Positions 5,122 through 58,959 of a stretch of DNA of 64,000 nucleotides are shown piece after piece. The stretch covers positions 32,040 through 96,039 of the forward strand of contig CAWIVN010000030.1 of assembly GCA_963839515.1 (NCBI GenBank), given 5' to 3'. This DNA comes from an uncultured Chloroflexia bacterium. Lineage in GTDB: Bacteria; Chloroflexota; Anaerolineae; Caldilineales; Caldilineaceae. Under the pieces are notes generated by a model that was not told the DNA's origin, did no database searches, and worked only from the letters and a program-made list of their open reading frames with translations. A program made the translations under genes and the position numbers. Within the stretch, counting starts at the first letter, position 1. Each line of letters begins with the position of its first letter.

Positions 5122-6090
5122 TCAAGCTTCGGAATCCCGCAGGGCGTACCCTGTCACCGCCAGGAAAACGTCGCCTAAGCTGGGCTTGTTGGTACTTACC
5201 CTGTGGACATGGACAGCACTGGCGGCGGCCAGGCCGACAACAGAAGCCAGGCGCTGCTCGCCATCGTCCACGCCGATCTGCAGGCGGTACGCGCCGTCTG
5301 CAGCGTGGAGCGTGACCTGCGAAACGTAGGTCTCAGCCTCCAGGCGCGCCTCGAGGCCGTTGAGCGAGCCCGGCCCTTCCAATGTGATCACATCGGCGCC
5401 CATGCGTTGCACCAGTTCTTGTGGCGCACCTTCGGCCACCAAGAGACCGTGGTCGATGATACCCACGCGGTCGGCCAATTGCTCGGCTTCATCCATATAA
5501 TGCGTGGTCAGCAGCAGTGTCATGCCGCGTTCTTCGCGCAAGCGGCGAATGTAGCGCCAGATGCCGGCGCGGTTCTGCGGGTCCAAGCCCTGCGTCGGCT
5601 CGTCCAGGAACAGAATTTGGGGAGCCGTCATCAGCCCGCGCGCGAGTTCCAGCCGCCGCTTCATGCCGCCGGAATAGGTTTCGGCCTTGCGGTCGAGCAC
5701 ATCGGCCAACTCCACCAGGACGGCCAACTCGTCGATGCGCTGGCGGCGCGTGGACGCGTCCTGGCCATAAAGCTGGCCATGAAAGTCCAGCGTCTGCCGC
5801 CCCGTCAACTCACCGTCCACGACAATTTCCTGGAAGGTTACGCCGATGCGGCGGCGCACCTCGGCCGCCTGTGCCACCACATCGTAGCCTGCAACCTGGG
5901 CCGTGCCACGCGTGGGCGTCAGGAGCGTGGTCAATATGGACAGCAGGGTCGTTTTGCCGGCGCCGTTGGGCCCCAGCAGCGCATAGATCTCGCCTGCTTG
6001 CACGATAAAGCTTACACCGCGCAACGCATGCACGCTTTCGTTGCCTACGAGGTACACTTTCTCCAGCCCGTTTGTAATTAATGCAGTCAT
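5122..6090 (-). CDS. ABC transporter ATP-binding protein (DrrA / ABC-2 type ATPase)
   Basis: Walker A GPNGAGKTT, ABC signature YSGGMKRRLELA, Walker B ILFLDEPTQGLD, H-loop; about 90-aa C-terminal DrrA-like domain. Confidence 0.85.
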   Translation of the reverse strand: MTALITNGLEKVYLVGNESVHALRGVSFIVQAGEIYALLGPNGAGKTTLLSILTTLLTPTRGTAQVAGYDVVAQAAEVRRRIGVTFQEIVVDGELTGRQTLDFHGQLYGQDASTRRQRIDELAVLVELADVLDRKAETYSGGMKRRLELARGLMTAPQILFLDEPTQGLDPQNRAGIWRYIRRLREERGMTLLLTTHYMDEAEQLADRVGIIDHGLLVAEGAPQELVQRMGADVITLEGPGSLNGLEARLEAETYVSQVTLHAADGAYRLQIGVDDGEQRLASVVGLAAASAVHVHRVSTNKPSLGDVFLAVTGYALRDSEA

Positions 6091-6273
6091 CGCAGTTCAA
6101 TCCATATAGCGAAGCTCAAAAATAGTATATAATCGTAAAGTATCGTATTTGCCTTGTGCATGGTATGTCAGGCGTTGTGCATTCGCCAATCCGGCGGACA
6201 ACCTGCAGTCGTACATTGGAGCGATATCAATTCAACAGTTTGACCGACGGTTCGGGTAAGATAAGACGCCATC

Positions 6274-6891
6274 ATGAAGGAACTCTTCGCCACGCACGGC
6301 TCAATCGAAGCCTCCCCGGCTACATTGGTGCAACGCTGCCTGCAAGGAGATGCCAACGCCTGGCGCCAATTGGTGGATCGCTACGCGCGCCTTGTCCACT
6401 CGGTGCCTGCACGCCATGGGCTTAGCCCTGCCGAGATAGAAGACGTGGGGCAAGAGGTCTTTTTGGCACTGGCGCAAAACCTGCACTCTATCGAAGATCC
6501 TGACCGCCTGCCCGCATGGCTGGTCACCACGGCCCGGCGCCTCTGCTGGCGTATGGTGCAGCGCCAACGCCGCGAACAGTCGCTCGACGAAGAGCCTGAC
6601 AATGGAGATGAATACACGTCGCGCCGTGAGCTCATCAGCCCACTGCAGACCCCTGATGAAGCTGTGGAAGGTTGGAACCGGCAGGCGATCTTGCATGCAG
6701 CTGTCGCGCGCCTGGGCGAACGCTGCCGCAGACTGATCGAGCTGATCTTCCTTGATACCCGCGAGCCCAGCTACGACGAAATCAGCGCCCTGCTGAACAT
6801 CCCCAAAGGCAGCATAGGCCCGACGCGCACTCGCTGCCTGAGCCAGCTCCGCATCCAACTGGGTGAAGAGGATCTCTTAGGTGACGAATAG
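6274..6891 (+). CDS. ECF-type RNA polymerase sigma-70 factor
   Basis: Sigma region 2 (LVDRYARLVHSV ... EDVGQEVFLAL ... PAWLVTTARRLCWR) and region 4 HTH (EPSYDEISALLNIPKGSIGPTRTRCLSQLR). Confidence 0.8.
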   Translation: MKELFATHGSIEASPATLVQRCLQGDANAWRQLVDRYARLVHSVPARHGLSPAEIEDVGQEVFLALAQNLHSIEDPDRLPAWLVTTARRLCWRMVQRQRREQSLDEEPDNGDEYTSRRELISPLQTPDEAVEGWNRQAILHAAVARLGERCRRLIELIFLDTREPSYDEISALLNIPKGSIGPTRTRCLSQLRIQLGEEDLLGDE

Positions 6892-6972
6892 CAGAGTTCG
6901 CGTATCTTTTGCCAGGGGAAAATGCTCTTATATTGCAGGATGAGTTAATTCGCTACGATTGAGGCGCTATAC

Positions 6973-7596
6973 ATGACGCATTTGGCCCCCCAACTACTAT
7001 ATACTCTAGCCTTCGATTCCAAACCGTTGGAAAGCGACGCCGAGCAGCACCTGGCTGCCTGCACTGCCTGCCGCCAAGCCTTGGCCGACCTGCGGGCGCT
7101 GGCCGAGGAGCTGAGGGTTATGAAGGTGAGCGAACCGTCACCCGCGGCGCTTGAACGCTACTATGCGGCGCAGTCGCTCATACAGCAGCAACCTTCGCGC
7201 CTCGGCGTCATGTGGCGCAACGTTTTGGCCATGCTTACGTGGGACAGCCGGCAGCAGGCGGCCTTGCAGGGCGTACGCAGCGGTGCAGGCAGCACGGCCT
7301 ATCGCCTCCTCTATGCTACTGAACAGGCGGAGATAGAGTTGCTGATCGAGCCGGAAGGACGTGCGTTCCGCACCCAGGGCGAAATCATTGCCGGCCAGGA
7401 GCCGGACGCAGCCGGCACACCCGTGACCCCGGCATTGATTCAGTGGATCGACGCGCAGGGCGACATCCGGTACGAAACGGAATCTGACACAAGCGGTCTT
7501 TTTTCGCTGCGCAACATTGCGCCCGGCATCTACCGGCTGTCCATCGTTTCCGCGGCCAGCGACATAATCGAAATTGAGGCGCTGGAGATCATGTGA
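6973..7596 (+). CDS. Putative zinc-finger (ZAS-type) anti-sigma factor, soluble, with a C-terminal carboxypeptidase-regulatory-like beta domain
   Basis: HLAACTACRQ matches the H-x3-C-x2-C ZAS motif and lies directly downstream of the ECF sigma gene. No predicted transmembrane segment. C-terminal FSLRNIAPGIYRLSIV resembles a CarbopepD_reg-like fold. Confidence 0.55.
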   Translation: MTHLAPQLLYTLAFDSKPLESDAEQHLAACTACRQALADLRALAEELRVMKVSEPSPAALERYYAAQSLIQQQPSRLGVMWRNVLAMLTWDSRQQAALQGVRSGAGSTAYRLLYATEQAEIELLIEPEGRAFRTQGEIIAGQEPDAAGTPVTPALIQWIDAQGDIRYETESDTSGLFSLRNIAPGIYRLSIVSAASDIIEIEALEIM

Positions 7597-10583
7597 TGTC
7601 GGACAGTTATAGCGGTGGATTGACAGGTGGCTTGACGAGCGAACTACTCACGCAGCTTGCCGACCGGCCCACCGAAGAAGCTTTAGCCACCCTCACCGCC
7701 AATGGATTGCTTACTACGAGCGCAGCCGCACAGGCTGCGCAGTTAGTATTGGCTGGTGCAGCCACACATCCGGTTCAAGTCGCACGTTGGCTGCCCCTGA
7801 TCGGCGCCATGGTTGCAGCGACCGGCGGCGATCCGGCAACGGCGGCCGATCTGGCCTATGCGCGTTCGCGCCTGGCACTCGAACAGGGTGATCCGGCGGC
7901 AGCCGAGACTTTACTACAAGAGGCGCGCAGCCTTTGGCAGCAGGCCGGCGACGACGCCAGCGTAGCGCGCACCGGTGTGGGCATGACGCAGCTGCTGGCG
8001 ATGCAGGGCCGTTTCGAAGAAGCAGAGGCGACCATTCGCACGTCGATTGCCGCGCTGTCCGCGCTGCCCGGCGAAGAAGTCAGGCTCATACAGATGGACG
8101 CACGCCAGAACCTGGCGACACTCCTGAGCTATCAGGAACGGTTCGTCGAGGCGGCCGAAATCAATAATGACTTGCGCCAAGGCTATCTGAGCTTGCTGGC
8201 GCAGGCCAGGTATCCAGCAGAAGCAGTTGACTTGCAGACGCGCCTCGCCCTGGTCGAACGCGACCTGGCCCTGGCGCATACCTATCTTGATCAACCACAG
8301 GTGGCGGAGACGCTGCTTGAGGGTGCCGTGGAGCGCCTGAGCTTGCCCGAGGTGCGCATCGATCGCGGCCAGACGCGCACCAATCTTGGTCACCTCTATG
8401 TACGCACGGGCCGCTATGCCAGGGCCATTGCCGAGTTGGACGCGGCCACAATTGACCTGCTGGGAACGGTGGATGTCGACAGCGTGCCTGATCTCTGGCC
8501 GGCGGCCGACCTTCTGTTCCTGGAACAGGCATCCGCCTACCTGGTGCTCAACCTGCTGCCTGAAGCCGAAGCCGCCCTGCGCCGCGCCCAGGAGATACTG
8601 CGAGCCACGGAGCAGACGTATGAACTCGGCCAGGCGCTATATCTATTAGGGATATTGGAATGGCGGCGCAATAACATTGGCGCAGCCGGCGCAGCGTTGG
8701 CGGAAGCGGAAACCATCTTTGCGCAACTGGACAACATCTATTGGTTGCATCGCGTCCGCCTGGCTCAGGCGGCGTTGGCGTTACGCAGCGGCGACAGCGA
8801 CGATGCCACCCGTCGCATAGACCTCCTGCTGGCGGATCAGGCACCGACTGGGGAACAGACAGCAGCCGGCGATCAGACTGCCCTTGCCTGGGACCAGTCT
8901 ACAACCTGCGATCTCTATCTGCTCGACGCTCGCCTTGGATCGGCTACCGGCGACCTGGCGCGAGCACAGCGCGCCGTCGATGCGGCTGTGAATGCGCTGG
9001 GCCTTTCTTCGCTTGAGGAAGGCACAACGAGCCTGCCTCATCTGCACCTGCAAGTGCTGCATGCGGCCGGCCAAGTCGCGCGCGCCCAGGGCAGACTTGA
9101 CGACGCACGCAGGCTATTCGTGCGCACGCTCGAGATCGTCGAGGCGCAGCGCGGATTGCTGCCGATCGAAGAGCTGCGGACAGCGTTCCTCACCGATAAG
9201 ACTGCGATCTATGTCGACCTGGTATTAAGCCTGTTGGACCTGCCAGAAGCGGATCCCGGCACCATTTCCGACGCATTTGCCGTCGTGGAGCGATCCCGAT
9301 CGCGTGCCCTGCTTGAACGGCTGCTTACGTCGGTAGACGACATGCAAGCCACCAGCGACTTAGCACCGGACGTGCGCGAGCTGGTTACCGAAACGCGCCG
9401 CCGGCTCTACTGGCTGTATAACCAGCTTTTAGGTGAAGAAGGTGGCAGCCGCGGCTCGGCGCCGGCTATCTCGGACGAGATCCGTGCCCACGAAGCAACG
9501 TTGCAGCGACTTGAGTGGCAGCGCACGCAATGGCTGCAGCAGGCGCGACCGGTCACGCTTGCGGATCTACAGGCCAGCCTTGGCAGCGACCAGGCAGCGT
9601 TGGTCTATTTTATCGCCAGCGACGAGGTGATGGCATTTGTCGTTTCACCTGCCGAGGCCAAAATTGTGCGCAATTTAGCGACCGTTGCGGCGCTCGACGA
9701 TGCGCAGGCGCAGTTGCGATTCCAACTGGGACGCGTCGAAATTGGCTCCGGCTACCAGGAGCGGCATCAAGCGCGCCTGCTGGAGGGTGCGCGCAACGCG
9801 CTGCGCCGCCACTATGACCTGCTTATTGCGCCGCTGCTGCCGCACCTGGCAGAACAAGCACCCGAGCGCCTGCTCGTGATTCCCTATGGATCACTGCACC
9901 TGGCTCCTTTCCATGCTTTCTGGAACGGCAGCGAGTATTTGCTGGAATCCTATGAAATCTCGTATGCTTCCAGTGCCAGCCTGGCCGTGCAGGTACGCGA
10001 GACGGACAAGGCCGGCATGTGCTCACTGGCGGGCGTCGCATTGCGCGACAAAGCCATACCGCAGGCGGAAAGCGAAGTACGCGCAGCGGCGCTCCACTTT
10101 GACCAAGCGCAGCTCTACCTGGACGAGCAAGCGGGTTTGGCAGGATTGTGGGAAGCCGCGCAGGCGGGCGATGTGCTGCATATCGCCACACACGGCGTAT
10201 TTCGTCCAGACAACCCGTTTTTCTCGGCACTTAAGCTGGCCGACGGCTGGATCGACGTGCGCACGATCTACCGGCTTCCGCTCCAAGCCCGGCTTGTTGT
10301 GCTCAGTGCGTGTGAGAGCGGTGCTGTCCAAGTGCAGGGCAGCGACGAGGCAATTGGACTCGTGCGCGGTTTTCTGGGCGCAGGCGCCGAAACATTGCTC
10401 GTCAGTTTGTGGAACGTTCACGACGCCAGCGCCGCTATATTAATGGACGAATTTTACGGACAATTGACGGGGCATGGGACGCGCCCGGCTGCGGCCCTGC
10501 AAACCGTACAGCGTAAGGCCGCCCGGAGCAACCGCCACCCATACTATTGGGCCCCCTATGTGGTAATGGGCGATTCGAGTTGA
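7596..10583 (+). CDS. TPR-repeat protein with a C-terminal CHAT (caspase-like) protease domain, about 996 aa
   Basis: Long helical repeat N-terminal region of about 700 aa, then a CHAT domain. LLVIPYGSLHLAPFHAF ... HIATHGVF (catalytic His) ... LVVLSACESG (catalytic Cys). Its GTG/ATG start overlaps the anti-sigma stop (ATGTGATG at 7591-7598). Confidence 0.8.
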   Translation: MSDSYSGGLTGGLTSELLTQLADRPTEEALATLTANGLLTTSAAAQAAQLVLAGAATHPVQVARWLPLIGAMVAATGGDPATAADLAYARSRLALEQGDPAAAETLLQEARSLWQQAGDDASVARTGVGMTQLLAMQGRFEEAEATIRTSIAALSALPGEEVRLIQMDARQNLATLLSYQERFVEAAEINNDLRQGYLSLLAQARYPAEAVDLQTRLALVERDLALAHTYLDQPQVAETLLEGAVERLSLPEVRIDRGQTRTNLGHLYVRTGRYARAIAELDAATIDLLGTVDVDSVPDLWPAADLLFLEQASAYLVLNLLPEAEAALRRAQEILRATEQTYELGQALYLLGILEWRRNNIGAAGAALAEAETIFAQLDNIYWLHRVRLAQAALALRSGDSDDATRRIDLLLADQAPTGEQTAAGDQTALAWDQSTTCDLYLLDARLGSATGDLARAQRAVDAAVNALGLSSLEEGTTSLPHLHLQVLHAAGQVARAQGRLDDARRLFVRTLEIVEAQRGLLPIEELRTAFLTDKTAIYVDLVLSLLDLPEADPGTISDAFAVVERSRSRALLERLLTSVDDMQATSDLAPDVRELVTETRRRLYWLYNQLLGEEGGSRGSAPAISDEIRAHEATLQRLEWQRTQWLQQARPVTLADLQASLGSDQAALVYFIASDEVMAFVVSPAEAKIVRNLATVAALDDAQAQLRFQLGRVEIGSGYQERHQARLLEGARNALRRHYDLLIAPLLPHLAEQAPERLLVIPYGSLHLAPFHAFWNGSEYLLESYEISYASSASLAVQVRETDKAGMCSLAGVALRDKAIPQAESEVRAAALHFDQAQLYLDEQAGLAGLWEAAQAGDVLHIATHGVFRPDNPFFSALKLADGWIDVRTIYRLPLQARLVVLSACESGAVQVQGSDEAIGLVRGFLGAGAETLLVSLWNVHDASAAILMDEFYGQLTGHGTRPAAALQTVQRKAARSNRHPYYWAPYVVMGDSS

Positions 10584-10598
10584 GACAGGAGGAACACT

Positions 10599-12239
10599 AT
10601 GCGGCCAGTAACTCGTGGCAAACGCCGCATCCTGACAATGATGACCATGTCCGCCGCCGTCATAGTGACGGCGACGCTGTTACTGACGCTGCGCGCAGTA
10701 GCCGCCAACATGGTAGTCAGCCCACTGGGCAGCACGGCAAGCACAGTATATTCCCCCCCTGATACCTATCGGCTGCAAGATACCGGCAGAGGCATTTTGC
10801 GCGACAGCATAGGATTTAACAGTTCGGATCGCCAAGACAACAAGAACAAGGTGACCGGCATCGTGGTGTTGTCTCCCACAAGTGGTTTCTCAGGCACATG
10901 GCAGATTCTTGAGGCCGGTCAGATTGTGACTGTGGTCGTGACGGCGGAGACTACCGTCAAGGATTTCAACGACGTGCGTCCGGAGCTCGGTGACTGGGTG
11001 GAAGCGAAGGGGCGCCCGCAAGCAGACGGCACGCTACTGGCGCGCAAGTTTCGCCCGAACAGATATGAGTCTGCGGAGGTCGTGGCGCGTCTGGCGGTCA
11101 CGGCCGTGCTCACGGATGTGCTAAACCAGTACCAGGCGGTCCAGTTGACGCCGATCCAGTCGTTGTTGTCCTCGGCCAGCATCTATCGCTTTGCCATCGG
11201 CGAAGATTATGACGAAATTTCGGTGACCACGGCGATGGAAAAAGATACGGCCAACTTCGTTTGGGCCGAGGTGAACTTCGTAAGCGAGGTGCCGTCCGGC
11301 AATCCATATCGCACCTGGAAGTGGGGCAGCGACGATCCCACGGGCTACATCAGCCAAAATGCGTTTACGCAGGTCAATCTATTGGAGGCTCAAGGGTTGT
11401 ATTCCGGCATTGGAGTAACGGTAGCCGTGCTGGATACCGGTATTGATGCCAATCATCCCGTGTTTGCCGGCCATCTCTTGGCCGGCCGTGACCTGGTTAA
11501 CGACGACGACGTGCCGCAAGATGGACCAGAGGCGGGCGAGCCAGGCGGCGATGCGCAAGGCCACGGCACGCATGTCAGTGGCGTGATCGCACACATTGCG
11601 CCCGACAGCATGATCCTGCCCATACGCATTCTTGACGTCGATGGGCGCGGCAATACCTTTGTTCTAGCTTATGCCGTCGATTGGGCGGTGGCGAACGGCG
11701 CCGGCGTAATCAACATGAGCCTGGGGTCGGACTCCGACTCGCACGTACTGGGCGAATCGATACAGCGTGCGCAGAGCCAGGGTGCGGTCATTGTAGCGGC
11801 GGCCGGCAACGACAACGCCGAAACGCCGAAGTACCCGGCAGCATATCCTGGCGTGCTTGGGGTTACCGCCGTAGACGATGCCAAGCACAAGGCAGAATTC
11901 GCCAACTATGGCACCGGGTGGGTCGATCTGGCTGCACCTGGGGTGGGCATTACTTCGACGGTGCCCGTCTCAGGTTCGATCCTGTATGGCACGTGGAGCG
12001 GCACGTCGATGGCCACCCCATTTGCAGCCGGAGCCGCCGCCCTGGTGCGGCAGTCCCTGCCCGACGCCAGGTCATCGGAAATTGCCGATATTTTGGTTCA
12101 ATCGGGGAGCGACCTGGATCCCGACAATCCGGGTTACACCGGAAAGCTGGGGCGCCTGCTGGATATCGGCGCCGCCTTGCCGGACACGCTGCCGCAGAAA
12201 CCCATCAAGTTGTTCTTGCCCTCCGTGATTGGCGGGTAG
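10599..12239 (+). CDS. Subtilisin-like S8 serine peptidase with N-terminal signal anchor, beta-module and I9-type propeptide
   Basis: Catalytic triad motifs AVLDTGID (Asp), HGTHVSGVIA (His), GTSMATPFAAGAAAL (Ser). Hydrophobic N-terminal anchor. Strong RBS GGAGGA 6 nt before the ATG. Confidence 0.85.
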   Translation: MRPVTRGKRRILTMMTMSAAVIVTATLLLTLRAVAANMVVSPLGSTASTVYSPPDTYRLQDTGRGILRDSIGFNSSDRQDNKNKVTGIVVLSPTSGFSGTWQILEAGQIVTVVVTAETTVKDFNDVRPELGDWVEAKGRPQADGTLLARKFRPNRYESAEVVARLAVTAVLTDVLNQYQAVQLTPIQSLLSSASIYRFAIGEDYDEISVTTAMEKDTANFVWAEVNFVSEVPSGNPYRTWKWGSDDPTGYISQNAFTQVNLLEAQGLYSGIGVTVAVLDTGIDANHPVFAGHLLAGRDLVNDDDVPQDGPEAGEPGGDAQGHGTHVSGVIAHIAPDSMILPIRILDVDGRGNTFVLAYAVDWAVANGAGVINMSLGSDSDSHVLGESIQRAQSQGAVIVAAAGNDNAETPKYPAAYPGVLGVTAVDDAKHKAEFANYGTGWVDLAAPGVGITSTVPVSGSILYGTWSGTSMATPFAAGAAALVRQSLPDARSSEIADILVQSGSDLDPDNPGYTGKLGRLLDIGAALPDTLPQKPIKLFLPSVIGG

Positions 12240-12259
12240 CAGCGCTCGTTTCGGCCACT

Positions 12260-12476
12260 TGGCCGGTCTATTGCACCAAGCCAAGCAGCCATTTGTCGAA
12301 TTCAACGAAATCTCGTATGCTTCCAGTGTCACCTTTTGTACGGGCCGAAACGGAACAAAAATATGGCGTGTTTCGTCCCGGCAGACCGTACAGCGTGAGT
12401 CTGCCCCTGAGCAATCGCGACCCATACTATTCTCTATGTAGTGATGGGTGATTCGAGTTGAAACAGGAGAAACACT
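12260..12476 (+). pseudogene. Decayed remnant of the 3' end of the TPR-CHAT gene plus the duplicated RBS region (product of a tandem segmental duplication)
   Basis: Blocks GAAATCTCGTATGCTTCCAGTG (12306-12327 vs 9953-9974), ACCGTACAGCGT (12376-12387 vs 10503-10514), CCCATACTATT, and GTGATGGGTGATTCGAGTTGAAACAGGAGAAACACTATGC (vs 10560-10601) are homologous to the end of the CHAT gene and the S8 leader. Confidence 0.6.
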
Positions 12477-14478
12477 ATGCAGCCGGCAGCACATGAAAAG
12501 CGTAGAACCCTGGCGATAGTAATTCTGTCCTCCACTATTTTGGCCGTGACGCTCCTTTTGACGCTGCGCGGGACTGCCGCCTATGCTTGGTCTAGCCATC
12601 CATCCAACGCGCCTGCGGCAGTGGATTCCGCGCCCAGTGCCAGCGGGGCGTTCGGCGCCGGCGAAGCGGTTCTACGCGATTCCAGGCAACAAGATGCCGC
12701 TGCAAAGAACAACAGACCGGTAGTCGGCATCGTGCTGAGTGGCCCGACTACGGGTTTTGCCGGCACCTGGCGAATACTTGACTCCGGCACAGTCGTGACG
12801 CTCACCGTTAACTCTGCCACAAATGTCAAGGCCTTTAACAGTGTGCCGCCGAAAAGAAACACTTGGGTGGAAGCCAGGGTCACACAGCAGGCTGATGGTT
12901 CGTTGCTGGTGCGCAAATTTCGCGCCAACAAGTTCCAGCCAGGTGAGGTCGTGGCCCGGCTGACTTCAACGGCGGTGCTCAGCGAGGTGTTGACAAAGTA
13001 CCAAAAATACCAGCTGATGCCATTGGAATCTTTGCTTTCGTCAGTGAGAATATATCGTTTTGCGATTGGCCTGGATCAAGATGAAGCAACAGTAGTCGGT
13101 GCAATGAAGGCGGATTCTGCCAACTTTATATGGGTAGAAGTCAACTTCGTCAGTGAAATCCCGACCGGCCCGCTTGCCAACCCGTATCGTACATGGAAAT
13201 GGGGCAGCAGCGACGAGACAGGTTATGTCAACCAGAATGCCCTGCAACAAATAGATCTCCTGCCGGTACAGGGCGTCTACTCGGGAACCGACGTGATCGT
13301 GGCCATCTTAGATACTGGTATTGACGCCACGCACCCCGTGTTCGCCGGGCGCGTACTGCCTGGAATCGATCTGGTCAACGGCATCATCTCTCCGACCAGC
13401 GACATCATCTCTTCGACCAGCGACATCATCTCTTCGACCAGCGGCATCCCCACTGACCAAGTGCCGCAGGATGGCCCAGAGCCGGGCCAGCCAAGTGGAG
13501 TTCGCACAGGGCCACGGTACGCACATCAGCGGCATCGTGTCGCTCGTTGCGCCCGAGAGCAAGATCCTGCCGGTGCGCGTCCTCGATGTCGACGGCCGTG
13601 GCGACATGTTTGCGCTGGCTCAGGCTATTGTCTGGGCCGTCGACCATGGCGGCGCTTCCGTAATCAACATGAGTCTGGGCACGGAGGATGATGCCGGCAT
13701 TCTGAAAGAGATCATTGCATACGCCCAAAGCAGAGGCGTTCTCATCGTAGCGGCAGCCGGCAACGACAACGTGGATAAGCCCCAATATCCTGCTGACTTC
13801 CCGGGCGTGCTCGGGGTTACCGCTGTGGACGACGCCGGGCAGAAGGCGGACTTCGCCAACTATGGCAGCGAGTGGGTTGATTTGGCGGCGCCGGGTGTGG
13901 CGATCACCTCCACCGTGCCGGTATCCGGTTCCGTCTACTATGCCACATGGAGCGGAACGTCGATGGCCGTGCCCTTCGTATCCGGAGCCGCCGCGCTTGT
14001 GCGCCAGGCTTCGCCTGATGCTCAACCGGCTGAGGTCAGTAACCGGCTGGTCCAGACAGGCCGCAATCTGGACGCCTTGAACCCAGGCTATGTAGGAAAG
14101 CTAGGGCGCCTGCTTGACGTAGATGCTGCCGTGCTGAATATAGTGCCGACAACTTCTGTACCGACGCTCGAACCGACGCTCGAGTCAACACCACTACCGA
14201 CTACTACTGTGGCGGTGACACCCGTCAATTCTGATGTGCAGACGGTCACGCCTGTGCCGCCAACACCTGTACCACCCACACCGACGTTCACGCCTACCCC
14301 CATGTTGGTGGTAACGCCCGCACCACCGACGACACGGGAGCCAACGCCGACAGTGCTGCCGCAAACGCTAACGCCAATGGTATTGCCGCAACCGACACAG
14401 CTGCCGGAACCGCCGCCGCCAGGTCCGTTGCCGGATGCTCCGCCTAGACTTTTCCTGCCACTGCTGTCCGGCGGTTAG
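12477..14478 (+). pseudogene. Second S8 subtilase paralog, split by a frameshift near 13485-13500 (two ORFs 12477-13691 and 13321-14478); Pro/Thr-rich C-terminal tail
   Basis: Frame 0 carries the signal anchor, propeptide and AILDTGIDATHPVF (Asp). The reading frame shifts by one nucleotide position; the downstream frame carries GHGTHISGIV (His) and GTSMAVPFVSGAAAL (Ser). The junction is DGPEPGQPSGVRTG / SQVEFAQGHGTH. Confidence 0.7.
13383..13445 (+). repeat. Perfect or near-perfect 21-bp tandem repeat x3 (ATCATCTCT(C/T)CGACCAGCG(A/G)C) inside the S8 paralog, encoding (I)ISxTSD x3
   Basis: Read directly from the sequence. It is inserted at the position corresponding to NDDDVPQDGPE of the first subtilase. 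Confidence 0.85.
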
Positions 14479-14745
14479 TCCGGACTACACTCATGTGTCC
14501 CTGGGATCTGCGAGATCCTGGGGACATTTTTTTGCTGCGGGTGCCGTTGATTGGCGTACGCCCCATGTCCGGCAGCCATATGCCGTCTGTACGTACACAA
14601 GCCGTACTCCGAACGCCGCAGTTGTGTGGACGTTTTTTGTATTTTCCAAGCATGTGTCGATCTCTTGTGAGTCAGCCGTGCAAATCTGGCCAGTGCGATG
14701 CCGTTCGATTGCACGCGATATCACACAAATCCAAGGAGGATTACG

Positions 14746-16197
14746 ATGGTTAAAGAAGCGAACACGAAACGTTGGTGGCGACTGTCGCTGACCGTGCTGT
14801 TTGCCGGCATCTTGCTGCCCCTGTTCGGTATGACGGCCCATGCCGGCGCAGCCGGTTGGGGTGGCGCCCTGCATGCCGAGACTGTGCTGCCGGGCGCCGA
14901 GCAAGATGACCATGGCGGCAACGGCGGCGGTGATGATAACGGCGGTAACGGAGATGGGCGCGAGTTCAAAGGTATTGTCGAAGCAATGCCCGAAGGTACC
15001 CCAGTCGGCTCGTGGACCATCAGCGGCAGCGTCTACAACGTCACCGAACAGACCGAGATCAAGGAGAAGTACGGCACGATCGGCGAGGGGACATGTGTAG
15101 GCGGCGAATGGTCCGCAGACGAAACCTACGTGCGTGAGCTTCACTCCACGCGCGAACTTGTGTGTAAGCCCGGCAGCGACGACAACGGCGGGAGTGGCGG
15201 CAGCGAAGGGCGCGGCGAACTTTACGCCAAGTTGGACAAATTCCCACCTGAATTGATCGGCAACTGGGTCATCGGCAGCCTTACCTTCAAGGCTGACGCC
15301 AACACCGAGTTCAACGAGAAGAACGGGCCGTTCACGCTGGAGGAGTTCGTCAAGGTAGAGTTTGTGATTTTACAGGACGGCACTTTCCTGGCCAAGGAAA
15401 TCAAGACCGTCGGCGTAGCACATGACGACGATGACGATGGTCCCGGCCACAGCCATGGCCATGACCGTGATGACATCGAGCACCAGGCTGTGGCTTTTGG
15501 CGTCATCGACAGCCTGCCAGCAGAGAGCGGCGAGGGCGTGTGGCAGATCGGTGGGGTCACCTACACCGTAACCATCTCGACCCAGTTAGAAGCGCAGCAC
15601 GGCCTCTTTGAGCAGGACCGCAACGTACGCGTCAAGTACTGGGTGGACGAATTCGGCAATCGCGTGGCCAAGCATATTAAGTCCATGCCGCCGGCGGCCG
15701 GTGGCAACCCGCAAGGCGTGCTCAAGCTGGTAGGCTTTGTCACCGATATGCCGGATGAGGCTGATGGCTTTATCGGCGAGTGGACAGTCGGCAATGTGGT
15801 TCTCGTGGCCGACCAAAGCAGCAAGTTTGACGAAGAGGATGGTATGCTGGCGGTGGACGCCTTCGTGGAAGTCAAATACCGCAAGGACGGCACCACGCTA
15901 CGTATCGTCGAGATGGAAACGCATGTCATGCCGGGTGGCGGCGACGACGACCATATCGGCAAGGTCGAGCGCATGGACGACAGCATGGCAGCAGCGGGCG
16001 CAGCAGCAGCAACTGCCACGTGGCGTATCGGCGGGAATGACTATGTGGTAACCGATGCGACGATGGTTGGCAACGTCGCGGCGGGCGACACGGTGCTGGT
16101 TAACAGCTACACTGATGCAAGCGGCGCCCAGGTGGCCACGCGGATTAACGACGTGACGTTGGACAACTTGCTCTTCCTGCCGACGGCTTCGCGTTAA
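14746..16197 (+). CDS. Secreted protein made of about 6 tandem beta-rich modules of roughly 60-70 aa each (DUF5666-like); function unknown
   Basis: Signal peptide after the ATG at 14746 (AAGGAGG RBS 6 nt upstream). Recurrent module, for example WTISGSVYNVTEQTEIKEKYG / WQIGGVTYTVTISTQLEAQHG / WRIGGNDYVVTDATMVGN. Confidence 0.6.
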   Translation: MVKEANTKRWWRLSLTVLFAGILLPLFGMTAHAGAAGWGGALHAETVLPGAEQDDHGGNGGGDDNGGNGDGREFKGIVEAMPEGTPVGSWTISGSVYNVTEQTEIKEKYGTIGEGTCVGGEWSADETYVRELHSTRELVCKPGSDDNGGSGGSEGRGELYAKLDKFPPELIGNWVIGSLTFKADANTEFNEKNGPFTLEEFVKVEFVILQDGTFLAKEIKTVGVAHDDDDDGPGHSHGHDRDDIEHQAVAFGVIDSLPAESGEGVWQIGGVTYTVTISTQLEAQHGLFEQDRNVRVKYWVDEFGNRVAKHIKSMPPAAGGNPQGVLKLVGFVTDMPDEADGFIGEWTVGNVVLVADQSSKFDEEDGMLAVDAFVEVKYRKDGTTLRIVEMETHVMPGGGDDDHIGKVERMDDSMAAAGAAAATATWRIGGNDYVVTDATMVGNVAAGDTVLVNSYTDASGAQVATRINDVTLDNLLFLPTASR

Positions 16198-16436
16198 GCC
16201 GCAGCAAGTCAGCAGAACGTCAACAGCAAGCAGGAATACCCTCGGGCCGTCAATTGGCCCGGGGGTATATTTTTGGAGCACATTTCCTGGAGGCGAAGGC
16301 CTTCTGGCAGCCTGCTTGCGCAGTTTTGTTTGCGTGTTTGTCAGCGCATGCGGTATGCTGTGCGGAACCGCCCGTCGCGCCGCTTGCGCGGCGGGGTGGT
16401 CGAACAACAATCAAATCTTTGCATGGCGAGAGTTGG

Positions 16437-25427: not shown

Positions 25428-26984
25428 ATGAGCAGCAAAGTGTCTTGGCGCAAGGACATGCCGCCGCTGCTGCACTTCCTGGAACAGAAACTTAACCATC
25501 GCGTGCGCGGCCACGACGAAGTCCTCGGCTATGAGCTTTATTTTGTCGATCTTTCCGCGTGGAAACTGCGCTTCTCCAACGCCACACCCGTATTGTGGAT
25601 GAAAGAGAATGACCTTGCCTCGTTCGACAACCCGCGCCAAATTGCGGAGAGCGTGATCGAAGCTGTGCGCATGCGCAACCTGGTCGAGCGCCAGACAATC
25701 GTATTGGTGGACGGCCCCGAAGCGGGACTGCGCGAAGCCTTTCGCATCAGCTTTATGCCCATTATGGTGCTTGACAGCATTGACGTCCACGCCGTAATGG
25801 AATCACGGCGGGCGACCGGCGAATTGCTCGACCGCCTTTGTATTCAGCTTAGTCCGGCGTTGCTTTCGCCCTACGAGATCAGCAAACCTGTTACCGGCTC
25901 GCGCTTTTTCGGCCGCGAGTCGGACCTACGCCGGATCCTATATGGCAGTGACAGCAACTACGCCGTGATGGGCATACGCCGTATCGGCAAGTCTTCGCTG
26001 CTGCGCGAGGTCGAACGCCGGCTGCAGGAACAAGTACAAGAAACCGTGCAGGAGGGCTTTAGCAGCGAGGATATCGCACGCCGCATTTTTTACAAGGACT
26101 GCAGTTCGATCACTTCGTCGGGAGCACTGATGCAGGCCGTGGTCAACCACTTCCATCCGCAGGAGTTGAATCGGCTCAACCACCGCCAGTTTCCCATCTT
26201 TTTCCCGGATTTCATGCGTCGCATGGCCAAGCGCTACGGTGGACAGCTTGTGTTCTTGCTCGACGAGTTCGATGCGCTGCTGCGCGCCGAGTTCGCCAAC
26301 GAGGAGTTGCTCGACCAACTGCGCGCTTCCAGTAACGAGGGCAGCTGCCGCTTCATTTTTGCCGGCTTCCGCGACTTGCTCAACGAGACTAGCAGCCTGA
26401 GCTCGCCGTTCTTCAATTTCGCCAAACCCCTGCGGCTCAAGGAGTTTAGTCGCGAGGACGCTGCCAGCCTCATTCTCATGCCACTTGAGAGCTTGCGCAT
26501 CCGACTCGAACGCCGCGAAGAAATTATAGACATAATTTACGGCGAAACCGCTGGTCAGCCCAACCTGATCCAATATTACTGTTCCTACTTGGTGGACAAG
26601 CTCGACCGTAGCGGCAATCGTGCGGTTTCGCCCGAGGATGTAGCGGGCGTGCCTGACGACGAAAACTTCCGATCGTTTCTGGTCAACACCTTTATGGACA
26701 ATACCGATCACCTGGAGAAGGCGCTGGTCTTCTCACTGATTCTTTTTGACCCAGTGAGCGAAAAACGCTACGACCTGGAAATGATCGATCAGGCGCTGCG
26801 CAAGGGTGGAATCGACACACGTTTCCTACAGCTGGAGCGAGCCTGCCGCAACCTTGAGCTCACGGGCATTTTGGACAAGCGCGGCCGACACTACCATTTT
26901 GCCATCCCAGTTTTCCCCCGCGTGTTGCGTGCGAACTACAACATAAAGTATCTGCTCGGCAAGATCCGTTATGAGGGTATATAG
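25428..26984 (+). CDS. P-loop ATPase of AAA_16 / Arch_ATPase (DUF234) type with a C-terminal winged-helix domain and an uncharacterised 150-aa N-terminal domain
   Basis: FFGRESDLRRI ... Walker A GIRRIGKSSLL ... Walker B LVFLLDEFD; C-terminal wHTH-like segment. Confidence 0.6.
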   Translation: MSSKVSWRKDMPPLLHFLEQKLNHRVRGHDEVLGYELYFVDLSAWKLRFSNATPVLWMKENDLASFDNPRQIAESVIEAVRMRNLVERQTIVLVDGPEAGLREAFRISFMPIMVLDSIDVHAVMESRRATGELLDRLCIQLSPALLSPYEISKPVTGSRFFGRESDLRRILYGSDSNYAVMGIRRIGKSSLLREVERRLQEQVQETVQEGFSSEDIARRIFYKDCSSITSSGALMQAVVNHFHPQELNRLNHRQFPIFFPDFMRRMAKRYGGQLVFLLDEFDALLRAEFANEELLDQLRASSNEGSCRFIFAGFRDLLNETSSLSSPFFNFAKPLRLKEFSREDAASLILMPLESLRIRLERREEIIDIIYGETAGQPNLIQYYCSYLVDKLDRSGNRAVSPEDVAGVPDDENFRSFLVNTFMDNTDHLEKALVFSLILFDPVSEKRYDLEMIDQALRKGGIDTRFLQLERACRNLELTGILDKRGRHYHFAIPVFPRVLRANYNIKYLLGKIRYEGI

Positions 26985-29828
26985 GTGAACAACTGGCCCT
27001 CCGAACCAACCGGCAGCTGGGAACTCACTCCATATGCGGGCGACAGCCAGTTCAAGCGGCAGCGTCTGCGCCATCTCGATCGCATTCGCCAAGTAGTCGA
27101 ACACGTCCGTCAGCATGATTATGTCGTGCTCCTCGGCCCCGCCTACAGCGAAAAGACGCGACTGCTCAACGACGTGGACGAAAAGCTCGCCGCTAGCGAC
27201 CTTTATACACCGATCTATGTCAATCTCTGGCGCGTGCGCACCGACGACGAGGCGGCGTTCTTTTCTAGCCTGGCCCAGGTGATCTGTCGATCCGAGCGCA
27301 TCTGCGGTCAGCCCTATGCCGATATGGAGCGGGCAGATCGCACCTATGACGGAGGAAGTTTTCGTTCCTTTCTAGACACGATCGCGCAGCATCACGACCG
27401 GCATGTGGTGCTGCTAATTGACCATTTACAGGTGCTGCCGCAGGATTTGACGCACCGCCTGCTGCAGTTGTTGCGCGCTGCCTACATGGAGCGCCAGCCT
27501 ACTGCCCAACACCAGGTCGACGTCGTCGTGGCGGGAAGCGCCGCCTTGGCTGAACTCTCGCATGACAGCACCTCGCCCTTCAACATGGCGCACCCCGTGT
27601 TTCAAGGGCCACTCACAGTTGACGCTTCGCTGGCACTAACCCGCGCCAACTTGGACGCTGCGGGAACACCATACTCGCCGGGAGCGGCTGAGCGCTGCGT
27701 TTACTGGGCTGGTGGCGACAGCTACCTCATCCCGCAATTGATCAGCTTGTGCCAAGAGAAACTCCAAGGCTATCGTAATCAGCGCATTACTCGCACGGTC
27801 GTGGATCATACCGCCGAAGAGTTTGTCGCTGATCTACCATGCGATCCGATGCGGGCAGCTATTCAGGTGATCGAAGAAGACCCAGATACATTGCTCGACA
27901 TCGTCACGCTGCTGCGCGAGGCAGTGCTGCCGCGCAACCAGGCACACCAGACAATCCTGCGCACCGGACTGGATCGCCTGCAATTGTCCGGGGCCGTCGT
28001 ACTGGATGGGGACAGCTACCACATCAAGAATGAGATATACCGCCGCGTGCTACACCGTCATTTCGTACAAGGACGTGTTGCCCATGTGCTGCGCATGAAC
28101 GGGCGATGGGAGGAGGCAATTCAGTACCTATCGACCGAACTAGAGAGCGAACCGCTTGCACCCAGCGACATCGAGGCCAGCCGCACGGTTCTTCTAGACG
28201 CAATCGTCCAGTCAATCTATGCGGCCGGCCGCGAGGAAGATGCCTATCGAGCGTTGCTGGAGGGCATTCACCTGGGTTTCCATCTCTCAGGGGTACGCGT
28301 CTATCGCGCCTACGCCGGCCGCGGCGAACTGCGCCTGGTTGAAAGCGACGACGAAATTACCCCGGCGGATGCGGTCATCGACCTCAACGATGTTGCGCAA
28401 GCCGAAGTGCGCACGTTTCGTGGTGGTGACTATGCTCTGCGCGGCGAGATGGGAAGCAAACGGCTGTTGGCAGCATTGACGCCGGAACGGCGGCCTATCG
28501 GCATGGTTACCATCGATCACTTTAGCGCCGAAACCGAACCTCACGTCTATCCACCCCATCTCTTTGCCTTGCTGCGGTTTCTGCGCCACGCATCCAGCGC
28601 CATCGAGAACGTCATGATGCGCAGCGCTATTCAAGAGATCGGTCGGGCCGTACTCAACGCCAGCACGCTCACCTCCAACCTGGACCACGTGCTGCAGGTC
28701 GTGCTTAACGCCACGGGCGGAGACGCCGCGCAATTGCACTTACTTGACGCAGAGTACGCCCATCTGACACGTTTTGTTCACACTGGAGACATGGCAGCGG
28801 TTCGCGATGCCGGCGAGGCGCGTATTGAGCTGGAGTTGAGCAACCACCCGGCAGTACAGGCACTACGCAATAATACACTCACGCCATCACGCCAGGCTAC
28901 GCCGCCAGGAATGTATGCCTATCTGCCGCTTGTAGCTGGTGGCAATCAACTTGGCGTGCTTGTGCTCTTCTTTGGCGGTTTACACAGTGGTCTCAGCGCC
29001 GAAGATCGCAAAACATTGGAGACTTTTGCTGACCAGGTTGCGATTGCAGTGCACAACATGCAGTTGCTACGCCGTACCGACGACGCCCTGCAGGAGAAAG
29101 TACGGCAGCTTGACGCCCTGCGGCGCCAGGCCGTCCAGGAACGCGACCAGGAGTTGCAGGATGTGGCAACCGCACTCGTCCATCGCATTGGTGGCGCGAC
29201 CGGCGATATTCCCGTTCACCTGGCGCGTGTACGTGCGGCAGTCGCGAACGAGAGTGAGGAACAGATCGCCGCGCGCAGCGAGGTGTTTGATGCACTCGAA
29301 CACGTGGAAAAACGCATCCAGCACGTGCAAGACCTGCTGCCGTCGCTAGAGGAGATTGCGAACCTGGCTGCGGTCAGCTTCCGGCCCGTGGAGCTGTCGG
29401 GCCTGCTGGAGGAATTGGTAAACGAATTGGTGTCTAGTCCCGGCGTAGTCGAAGCGGACCTGGCTGTCGACAAGGATGTCATCGTCGAAGGCAGCCGCAC
29501 CTTGCTGCGCGATGCCTTGCGCTCGCTGCTGGAGAACGGCTACGAGGCCATGCCGCGTGGCGGCACGTTAACCGTACGCGTCACCAAACTGCCGGGAGGG
29601 CACGTCCAGATTCGCATCGAAGATACGGGGGTGGGCATTGCTGATAAGCACAAGAGCAAGATGTTTCAGCTAGGCTTTAGCACCAAGGGAGGACGCAGGC
29701 GCAACCGTGGACGGGGTATGTTCACCTGCCGAGCTATCGTGCGCAAACATGGCGGGGAAATCGCCATCGATTCGCGCGAGGGCCACGGTACAGTCGTCAC
29801 GATAGTACTGCCACTCCTGGGAGTCTAG
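26985..29828 (+). CDS. Cytoplasmic sensor histidine kinase: N-terminal P-loop ATPase domain (paralog of the upstream ATPase) + GAF domains + HisKA-like/HATPase_c
   Basis: VVLLGPAYSEKTRLL (Walker A-like), VVLLIDHLQ (Walker B-like). C-terminal HATPase_c (LLENGYEAM ... IEDTGVGI ... GRGRGMF ... HGGEIAI). No transmembrane segments. The GTG start abuts the upstream stop. Confidence 0.7.
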   Translation: MNNWPSEPTGSWELTPYAGDSQFKRQRLRHLDRIRQVVEHVRQHDYVVLLGPAYSEKTRLLNDVDEKLAASDLYTPIYVNLWRVRTDDEAAFFSSLAQVICRSERICGQPYADMERADRTYDGGSFRSFLDTIAQHHDRHVVLLIDHLQVLPQDLTHRLLQLLRAAYMERQPTAQHQVDVVVAGSAALAELSHDSTSPFNMAHPVFQGPLTVDASLALTRANLDAAGTPYSPGAAERCVYWAGGDSYLIPQLISLCQEKLQGYRNQRITRTVVDHTAEEFVADLPCDPMRAAIQVIEEDPDTLLDIVTLLREAVLPRNQAHQTILRTGLDRLQLSGAVVLDGDSYHIKNEIYRRVLHRHFVQGRVAHVLRMNGRWEEAIQYLSTELESEPLAPSDIEASRTVLLDAIVQSIYAAGREEDAYRALLEGIHLGFHLSGVRVYRAYAGRGELRLVESDDEITPADAVIDLNDVAQAEVRTFRGGDYALRGEMGSKRLLAALTPERRPIGMVTIDHFSAETEPHVYPPHLFALLRFLRHASSAIENVMMRSAIQEIGRAVLNASTLTSNLDHVLQVVLNATGGDAAQLHLLDAEYAHLTRFVHTGDMAAVRDAGEARIELELSNHPAVQALRNNTLTPSRQATPPGMYAYLPLVAGGNQLGVLVLFFGGLHSGLSAEDRKTLETFADQVAIAVHNMQLLRRTDDALQEKVRQLDALRRQAVQERDQELQDVATALVHRIGGATGDIPVHLARVRAAVANESEEQIAARSEVFDALEHVEKRIQHVQDLLPSLEEIANLAAVSFRPVELSGLLEELVNELVSSPGVVEADLAVDKDVIVEGSRTLLRDALRSLLENGYEAMPRGGTLTVRVTKLPGGHVQIRIEDTGVGIADKHKSKMFQLGFSTKGGRRRNRGRGMFTCRAIVRKHGGEIAIDSREGHGTVVTIVLPLLGV

Positions 29829-29859
29829 ACATACCCGTTGGGAAGGAGTCACTGCCGCC

Positions 29860-58706: not shown

Positions 58707-58959
58707 TGCGATTCCTTTCGTGTTAACAGCAATAATCCGGTAAGTATACCATTGCGCCATATGTTCTTTGTTTCACGAGGTCCTTTCGCTTTGGCAAATT
58801 CGGTTTATCCAAGTATACTGGAACGGATTTTCGGGGGTCATAATTGACCAGTACGCAAATAAGGCGAACAGAAATACGAAAATTATAAAGTGTTAAGAGG
58901 ATCGAGGCGTGGCGGCCGCCATAAGCGGCGCGACGCCGGAAGTGTTCGGGAGAATAGTC

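Follow-up and report, generated by a model that had tools for sequence, protein, structure and literature searches.

The locus described here comprises six open reading frames (ORFs) on the forward strand of a 64,000-nucleotide stretch of DNA, referred to below as the window, from an uncultured Caldilineaceae bacterium of the Chloroflexota (assembly GCA_963839515.1, contig CAWIVN010000030.1, positions 32,040 to 96,039). The six ORFs share one orientation, span positions 6274-16197 and are found where a first-pass annotation had placed them. In order, they encode an extracytoplasmic function (ECF, group IV) sigma factor of 205 amino acids (aa; 6274..6891), a soluble anti-sigma-like protein of 207 aa (6973..7596), a cytoplasmic TPR-CHAT protease of 996 aa (7593..10583), a secreted pre-pro subtilase of family S8 with 546 aa (S8 #1, 10599..12239), a frameshifted paralogue of S8 #1 (S8 #2, 12477..14478) and a secreted DUF5666 repeat protein (14698..16197, with a likely start at 14746). 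The CHAT, TPR, sigma, S8 and DUF5666 assignments were made from Pfam and NCBIfam model scores compared with the family cut-offs. The CHAT start and the 207-aa stop overlap (ATGTGATG), in line with the adjacency and coupling given in the first-pass annotation, and S8 #1 starts 15 nt past the CHAT stop, preceded by AGGAGG. Between the sigma gene and the end of S8 #2 any terminator-like hairpins are weak, with stems of at most 9 bp. Hairpins that resemble terminators stand behind S8 #2 (14495..14527, +; a 15-bp stem with a T run) and behind the DUF5666 gene (16236..16268, +), and judged from these the transcription units look like one containing sigma, anti-sigma, CHAT and both S8 genes, and another containing the DUF5666 gene.

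Since dozens of genomes share this arrangement, it goes far beyond what chance would give. For the comparison we took one genome per species, giving 80 CHAT loci with flanks of up to 10 kb, and searched their six-frame ORFs with the window proteins and iterated profiles. The CHAT homologues are annotated as Caldilineaceae or Chloroflexi; there are about 72 full-length orthologues with 42-100% identity, after which identity falls sharply to about 30%. Among the Caldilineales-type loci with enough flank (n=35), every one has the sigma gene and an S8 gene, 34 have the 207-aa family, and the four genes stand together in 34 of the 35. The distant loci (n=21, CHAT 28-34% identical) have the sigma gene in 18 cases, the 207-aa family in 20 and S8 in 16, with all three in 16. 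Their hosts belong to Ardenticatenaceae, Anaerolineae, Armatimonadota, Acidimicrobiales and other Actinomycetota, and Bryobacterales and other Acidobacteriota, and the cassette is thus spread over at least four phyla. Synteny of the CHAT gene with the sigma/anti-sigma pair in related genomes, on which the first-pass annotation had made its proposal depend, therefore held across the family and across phyla.

The order of the genes varies and the set is kept: it reads sigma-CHAT-anti-sigma-S8 in Bryobacterales and S8-sigma-anti-sigma-CHAT in locus L072, and L061 has divergent pairs. At an orthologous locus with 52% identity and different flanks, independent gene calls with precomputed Pfam matches give Sigma70_r2 / CarboxypepD_reg / CHAT / Peptidase_S8 / DUF5666. 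In about half of the loci the 207-aa gene overlaps the CHAT gene or lies directly against it. Over 45 loci the four components vary together in pairwise identity (r = 0.85-0.93), a correlation that fits inheritance as a unit and is confounded by species phylogeny. The S8 gene adjoins the CHAT gene in 35/35 close loci and 16/21 distant loci, which makes S8 part of the core of the cassette and no incidental neighbour; it had been proposed as a regulon member or effector, and the link stands, in a stronger form than was proposed. A few CHAT relatives (L055, L056) have no partner genes.

The module was described as one without CRISPR, and both the conserved synteny and the content of the window support this. 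A tandem-repeat search of the window gave no CRISPR-like array. There is also no Cas7-11 (gRAMP, >1300 aa), because no ORF in the 64-kb window is longer than the 996-aa CHAT protein, and the earlier statement that cas genes and repeats are absent holds in these respects. SAVED, cyclase and CRISPR genes were likewise not found at the locus by domain scan, PADLOC or inspection of the neighbouring genes.

The identity of the sigma factor is clear from its model scores, as annotated. The protein matches Sigma70_r2 (1.3e-12, 47.8 bits against a threshold of 24) and, over residues 29-196, TIGR02937 (85.5 bits against a cut-off of 42.9); region-4 matches were weak and below threshold. With sigma-2 and sigma-4 regions only and the model threshold reached, the 205-aa protein has the make-up of an ECF (group IV) sigma-70 factor, and no transmembrane segment was found in it. 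A candidate ECF-type autoregulatory promoter, CCAATCC-N17-CGTAC (6186..6213, +), lies 88 nt 5' of the sigma ATG. The corresponding CCAATC-N18-CGTA[AC]A is found 5' of sigma in L001, L002, L004, L010, L011, L014 and L031, and L005 has a GCAATC variant; altogether the element is conserved in the window and eight to nine other loci. Within those loci a relaxed form of the pattern is almost confined to sigma upstream regions, and the S8 #2 and DUF5666 genes are not preceded by extra copies of the motif. The position and conservation of this putative promoter fit autoregulation of the sigma operon.

Two further observations concern sigma factors and promoters. A canonical-looking ECF promoter motif, GGAAC-N17-CGTC, lies at 12352-12377, about 100 nt 5' of S8 #2; it is unlike the sigma-upstream motif and the other loci do not have it. 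A subset of Caldilineaceae loci carry a second, weakly related ECF sigma gene on the opposite strand downstream of CHAT, either about 3 kb past it (L015 10470-11060(-), L019 14877-15467(-), L021 16275-16865(-), L025 8240-8830(-) and L046 4012-4602(-)) or 6-7 kb past it (L028 20283-20876(-) and L029 19141-19725(-)).

The 207-aa protein was modelled with AlphaFold2 (pLDDT 82) as an N-terminal four-helix zinc anti-sigma-like domain (aa 1-72; helices 6-15, 21-29, 31-52 and 57-71) followed by a C-terminal Ig-like beta-sandwich (aa 83-206). The N-terminal domain carries an H-x3-C-x2-C zinc motif, HLAACTAC (aa 26-33, 7048..7071, +). Four residues, H3, H26, C30 and C33, do not vary in an alignment of the N-termini (A3, 22 sequences), and C30 is conserved at 90% or more in a second alignment (A2, 34 sequences). 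With H3 as the upstream His, they form the ligand set of a zinc-binding anti-sigma (ZAS) protein, with the spacing found in ChrR, to which the protein aligns from residue 6. When the N-terminal 78 residues were used in a profile search of the PDB, the first matches were DdvA (8rlz_A, E 0.018) and RslA (0.026), followed by full-length DdvA, RsiW and ChrR. On this basis the N-terminal part is probably an anti-sigma domain, and we predict that it binds the sigma factor. The protein had been annotated as a soluble zinc-finger anti-sigma factor; the motif, the solubility and the leading DdvA and RslA matches agree with this, but the E values are weak and Pfam zf-HC2 gave no match to the window's protein.

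Across the wider family, zf-HC2 matched weakly in 8/34 members and CarboxypepD_reg matched in 31/34; the window's protein by itself gave a weak CarboxypepD_reg-like match at aa 145-191. The H-x3-C-x2-C motif is found in 40/62 members, and the 22 without it are mostly from distant lineages. None of the 62 has a signal peptide or a transmembrane segment, defined as a hydrophobic 19-mer reaching a Kyte-Doolittle (KD) value of 1.6, and the family is therefore soluble and cytoplasmic. Homologues are mostly unnamed or hypothetical; one is named RsiW-like.

The best conserved element of this family across all lineages is not the zinc site. It is the motif L-x-[WF]-D-S-x7-G-[VIAL]-R-[SGN], in the window WDSRQQAALQGVRSG (aa 90-104, 7240..7290, +), and its Arg is present in 60/62 members across phyla. 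This Arg lies in a loop (aa 97-106) with pLDDT < 50 that is modelled as disordered; within it, Q99-S106 has the lowest confidence of the whole model. Because the CHAT protease HetF cuts PatU3 at R117|S118, in keeping with the preference of family C50 for Arg (PMC9457339), we propose the FDS-x7-G-V-R-S/G loop as a candidate site of CHAT recognition and cleavage, with R102|S103 as the candidate scissile bond. Separase cuts at ExxR (PMC11506125).

For the protease, the description as a 996-aa TPR and CHAT protein with HIATHG and LSACESG motifs was borne out. CHAT (PF12770) scored 194 bits against a threshold of 24, and TPR_12 scored 61 bits. The CHAT caspase-like domain (9798..10574, +) contains HIATHG (aa 863-868, 10179-10196, +) with the catalytic His867 and LSACESG (aa 904-910, 10302-10322, +) with the catalytic Cys907. 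Both residues are invariant in alignment A1, and the dyad is kept in 78/80 loci, the two exceptions being truncated ORFs. With the domain above threshold and the His-Cys dyad in place, the protein has the features of a clan CD CHAT peptidase. In the AlphaFold2 model (pLDDT 82.7, pTM 0.74) about 30 solenoid helices precede the alpha/beta CHAT domain; the TPR-like solenoid (aa 16-662, 7638..9578, +), which also matches TPR families, is presumed to be a sensor and docking arm. Three consecutive helices (698-755) lie ahead of the core sheet. The best Foldseek matches were human separase (9hma, 4e-13), DdvA (8rot_A, 9e-13) and Csx29, with E values from 4e-13 to 1e-10 and identities of 12-16%. No signal peptide or transmembrane segment was found in the protein.

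S8 #1 matches Peptidase_S8 (3.4e-51, 174.7 bits) and DUF5666 (7.5e-8), its ORF is intact and the triad motifs LDTGID, HGTHVSG and GTSMATP are all present. Its N-terminus is a hydrophobic, signal-like segment (KD 2.1), and with the Asp/His/Ser triad and a pre-pro organisation it is a subtilase of family S8. A signal-like N-terminus is present in 48/56 S8 proteins of the cassettes, and those of distant cassettes have fervidolysin-type prodomains. S8 #2 is split over two overlapping frames (12477-13691 and 13321-14478) by a frameshift near 13,490 (13,480-13,500), between the catalytic Asp and His, and thus of the two subtilases previously annotated only the first is intact. S8 #2 also contains an in-frame 21-nt x3.2 tandem repeat at 13382-13448 (IISxTSD three times) that S8 #1 does not have. 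Because the L001 orthologue is unbroken in a protein-level comparison, S8 #2 is either a recent pseudogene or the product of an assembly indel; blastn of the frameshift region against L001 gave no alignment.

The DUF5666 protein matches its family in three stretches (1.8e-24) and has a signal-like segment, in agreement with its annotation as a secreted repeat protein. The true start is probably the ATG at 14746 and not the listed ATG at 14698: the former is preceded by AAGGAGG, and the protein then begins MVKEANTKRWW and has a typical signal peptide. A DUF5666 homologue lies 3' of S8 in part of the Caldilineaceae loci.

The subtilase is not present at every locus that keeps the sigma, 207-aa and CHAT trio. 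At L080 (7224-17725) S8 is replaced by a 2030-aa secreted protein ending VYLPLVVRE, and at L070 (1773-10436) ketosynthase-like and adenylation-like genes lie downstream, with no S8. Outputs other than S8 thus occur, although S8 is the usual one.

The secreted proteins share a C-terminal tail of the form LFLPxxxx-COOH, which reads KLFLPSVIGG in S8 #1 (12210-12239), RLFLPLLSGG in S8 #2 (14449-14478) and LLFLPTASR in the DUF5666 protein (16171-16197). Among credible ORFs of the window the tail is found on the cassette proteins alone; a match at 58723-59811(-) looks spurious. When the S8 and DUF5666 genes of L003-L043 were compared, nearly all of the S8 proteins of Caldilineaceae cassettes ended in [LFY][FY][LIM]P-x-[VI]-x-x, and S8 proteins from other phyla did not. 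The library families gave no match to the tail, which may be a lineage-specific C-terminal tag for sorting, anchoring or recognition. Several Caldilineaceae cassettes have small proteins of about 200-260 aa with an xFLPxxxR tail between the S8 and DUF5666 genes (L020 11597-12226, L023 15100-15888, L026 14873-15499, L034 14919-15566, L036 15470-16078 and L037 14563-15267), a slot that is occupied by S8 #2 in the window.

The genes flanking the cassette are housekeeping genes, encoding 2-oxoacid dehydrogenase E1/E2, an ABC ATPase, an Mrp antiporter, polyphosphate kinase and Ffh. We found no defence-island context around the cassette, and PADLOC gave domain-level matches only, with no complete known defence system. 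A gene for a DrrA-like ABC ATPase (5122-6090(-)) lies upstream, divergent from sigma. It is kept in about a dozen Caldilineaceae loci (L001-L004, L010, L011, L014, L027, L031, L032, L038 and L041) and missing in others, for example L081; it may be conserved for no other reason than common descent of this stretch of the chromosome. Elsewhere in the window (25428-31428), three co-oriented genes encode an AAA_22 ATPase (518 aa), a GAF-containing histidine kinase (947 aa) and a fusion of a response-regulator receiver to TCAD9 (ternary-complex-associated domain 9; 4.9e-32), a domain described from NTP-dependent conflict systems. These three genes may form a separate signalling or defence module.

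Taken together, the functional linkage of the cassette genes is strong, and wider than was claimed in the first-pass annotation, and cleavage of the 207-aa protein by the CHAT protease is plausible. The cassette would then be a self-contained cytoplasmic switch that works by regulated proteolysis, with the CHAT protease cleaving the anti-sigma protein and so freeing the ECF sigma factor; apart from the promoter motif, this scheme is inferred, and we give it an even chance of being right. At rest, the sigma factor would be held by the zinc anti-sigma domain at the N-terminus of the 207-aa protein, whose Ig-like domain would present the exposed FDS-x7-G-V-R|S loop to the TPR-CHAT protease, which would stay inactive until its TPR arm of about 650 aa senses a signal. 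His867 and Cys907 would then cut the anti-sigma protein, probably after Arg102, and bulk proteases would destroy the leftover sigma-binding fragment and free the sigma factor. RNA polymerase with this sigma would transcribe its own operon from the CCAATC-N18-CGTA promoter, of which the motif is observed and the use is presumed, resulting in positive feedback and in one or more co-transcribed, exported S8 subtilases, so that the conserved output would be extracellular proteolysis, which might serve nutrition, antagonism, remodelling of the envelope or defence. The topology is as this scheme would need, since the sigma factor, the anti-sigma-like protein and the CHAT protein are all without a transmembrane segment and S8 has a signal-like N-terminus. 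In addition, the adjacency and the start/stop overlap of the 207-aa and CHAT genes suggest a stoichiometric partnership.

The same logic is known from Craspase, in which Csx29 cuts Csx30 and thereby relieves the inhibition of CASP-sigma, an RpoE-type sigma factor held in check by Csx30 together with Csx31 (PMC10028731). As in that type III-E system, a cytoplasmic TPR-CHAT protein is encoded alongside an ECF sigma factor and, in the cassette, the inhibitor predicted to bind it. Homology between the CHAT domains is seen in profile searches of the PDB (E about 1e-6) and with Foldseek (1e-12). However, the cassette has no Cas7-11, CRISPR RNA or CRISPR array and its activation cannot be RNA-guided. 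The Csx29 model NF041237 scored 56.8 bits against a cut-off of 300, with CHAT residues 754-956 alone aligned. The profile of the 207-aa family found no Csx30 or Csx31 among PDB sequences, including the Craspase-Csx30 entries, and there was no PADLOC match to either. Where Craspase has Csx30 and Csx31, the cassette inhibitor is a zinc anti-sigma with an Ig-like domain and there is no Csx31; moreover, the TPR arm is about twice as long and the conserved output is S8. The Craspase-like logic suggested in the first-pass annotation was thus supported in part. The cassette falls outside the Craspase family, and the DdvA/DdvS pair of Myxococcus xanthus proved to be a closest relative as well.

DdvA is a single-pass membrane protein of 991 residues with a periplasmic, dimeric TPR-CHAT region (PMC11506125, PMC6061681), and it shares with the cassette an N-terminal zinc anti-sigma domain, a TPR-CHAT protease carrying a catalytic His/Cys pair, and an ECF sigma factor as partner. 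It is also among the top structural matches of the CHAT protein and the top sequence match of the 207-aa N-terminus. In DdvA, the anti-sigma domain, a transmembrane helix and the periplasmic TPR-CHAT region form one polypeptide, whereas the cassette splits anti-sigma and TPR-CHAT into two soluble cytoplasmic proteins and adds an Ig-like domain. DdvA lacks a three-helix element by which separase and Craspase complete their active sites. DdvS drives CBASS and CRISPR-Cas genes, unlike the cassette with its secreted S8 subtilase. The hosts differ too: fusions like DdvA have been reported only in Myxococcota and one Comamonas species (PMC11506125), whereas the cassette occurs in Chloroflexota, Armatimonadota, Acidobacteriota and Actinomycetota. 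CHAT-mediated cutting of DdvA's own anti-sigma domain has been proposed only (PMC11506125).

The cassette, then, belongs to neither Craspase nor DdvA and follows the same logic. We tentatively suggest, at somewhat less than an even chance, that it is a widespread, CRISPR-independent, cytoplasmic "split DdvA", in which the TPR arm senses a cue, CHAT cuts the soluble anti-sigma protein at G-V-R|S and the sigma factor drives subtilase export. Possible cues would be peptides made by the secreted subtilase of the cassette, or secretion stress. Soluble cytoplasmic proteases that cleave a sigma inhibitor or sigma-associated protein are also found in CalpL-CalpT-CalpS and in SAVED-CHAT / PCaspase / PCc-sigma (type III-B; bioRxiv 10.1101/2023.06.23.546230). 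These are activated by cyclic oligoadenylates via SAVED, and CalpL is Lon-like, whereas the cassette has no SAVED, cyclase or CRISPR genes. We count these precedents for an ECF sigma freed by a protease (Csx29/Csx30/CASP-sigma, CalpL/T/S and the DdvA proposal) in favour of the cleavage reading.

A different way to release the sigma factor would be a classical ZAS switch, in which the zinc-thiolate centre is oxidised or alkylated and CHAT and S8 are merely co-transcribed products of the regulon. This is how RsrA-SigR and ChrR-SigE work, with cytoplasmic anti-sigmas that have HHCC/CHCC zinc ligands and respond to redox or singlet-oxygen conditions, and the 207-aa protein resembles them in being soluble and in its ligands, given the invariance of H3, H26, C30 and C33 in A3 and the conservation of C30 in A2. 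The structure of the operon, moreover, would make CHAT and S8 sigma-dependent anyway. RsrA and ChrR, however, have no dedicated protease partner, whereas the 207-aa family keeps CHAT as its partner even where the Cys ligands are lost: the 22/62 members without H-x3-C-x2-C retain the Arg loop and a neighbouring CHAT gene. Redox sensing is not the role of many ZAS proteins. Since the conserved adjacency to CHAT and the start/stop overlap are more suggestive of a stoichiometric partnership, we consider a purely redox-type switch unlikely.

We judge it a little less probable again that the 207-aa protein is a securin-like pseudosubstrate inhibitor or chaperone of CHAT. The real targets would then be other cell proteins, with a part in programmed death, abortive infection or development; the sigma factor would be released on a side branch that reports activation. 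Separase, which is inhibited by securin, is a structural neighbour of the CHAT protein together with Csx29, and the conserved loop could occupy the active site as a pseudosubstrate; CHAT proteases also act in defence cascades (bioRxiv 10.1101/2023.06.23.546230). Both separase-securin and HetF-PatU3 (clan CD, C50 / CHAT) share the helical-repeat and CHAT architecture, and in both a small regulatory protein is cut behind an Arg within a disordered stretch, which matches the proposed G-V-R-S loop. Their substrates are cohesin and PatU3, a cell-division and heterocyst regulator, and no sigma factor is involved. The housekeeping neighbours, the lack of a defence-island context and the domain-level character of the PADLOC matches do not fit such a role, and sigma and S8 are as conserved as the CHAT/207-aa pair, which argues that the transcriptional output is central. 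Finally, an envelope-type pathway, with the secreted S8 acting as site-1 protease on an extracytoplasmic anti-sigma domain and CHAT as an accessory, would account for the conservation of S8 beside the trio and for the presence of a CarboxypepD_reg-like domain, which is usually extracytoplasmic, but we rejected it on topology as very improbable, because the 207-aa family (0/62 with a transmembrane segment or signal peptide) keeps its Ig-like domain in the cytoplasm, S8 is exported (signal-like N-terminus in 48/56) and the two should therefore not meet after export.

Several points weigh against cleavage of the anti-sigma protein by CHAT as we propose it. The anti-sigma assignment is made from weak profile matches (E 0.02-0.5), the motif and gene order, and fold searches with the AlphaFold2 model gave only generic Ig-like matches; it is for these reasons, and for the weak zf-HC2 matches, that we call the identity probable. 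Instead of being the scissile site, the conserved loop could serve for binding or have a structural role. In an exhaustive profile search, none of the best 150 representatives joined the 207-aa family to CHAT in one polypeptide; the top of the list was mostly giant proteins with CarboxypepD_reg repeats, and the full-length matches were all stand-alone proteins of about 200 aa. The promoter motif is found in only about 9 loci, the full set is missing in 5/21 distant loci and some loci with the trio have other outputs (L080 and L070). Species phylogeny could also account for part of what appears to be co-inheritance.

In the literature searched we found this cassette described nowhere, the ECF Hub group tables, which may already list this context, being outside that search. 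Neither CHAT nor peptidases nor Chloroflexi are mentioned in the main text of the ECF reclassification (PMC7826278).

Bacteria have many CHAT proteases, and substrates are known for few of them (HetF, Csx29 and SAVED-CHAT). The action of the DdvA CHAT domain on its own anti-sigma domain is hard to prove, given that the signal is not known and the protein is a large membrane dimer. In the cassette the same logic is divided among three small soluble proteins, one of them with a predicted scissile loop, and the hypothesis that CHAT cleaves the anti-sigma protein is therefore testable in E. coli or in vitro. If it is true, ECF sigma factors would be released from soluble anti-sigmas by a new mechanism, and the CHAT / sigma logic employed for defence by Craspase and DdvA would exist here in its free-living form. 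Confirmation would also assign a function to a conserved, unnamed family of 200-aa proteins whose members are mostly annotated as hypothetical. More speculatively, the sigma-control branch of Craspase might have been recruited from a pre-existing switch of this housekeeping type. Such a mechanism would also hint at how the production of extracellular proteases is controlled in Caldilineaceae and in other Chloroflexota, groups that abound in soils and activated sludge.

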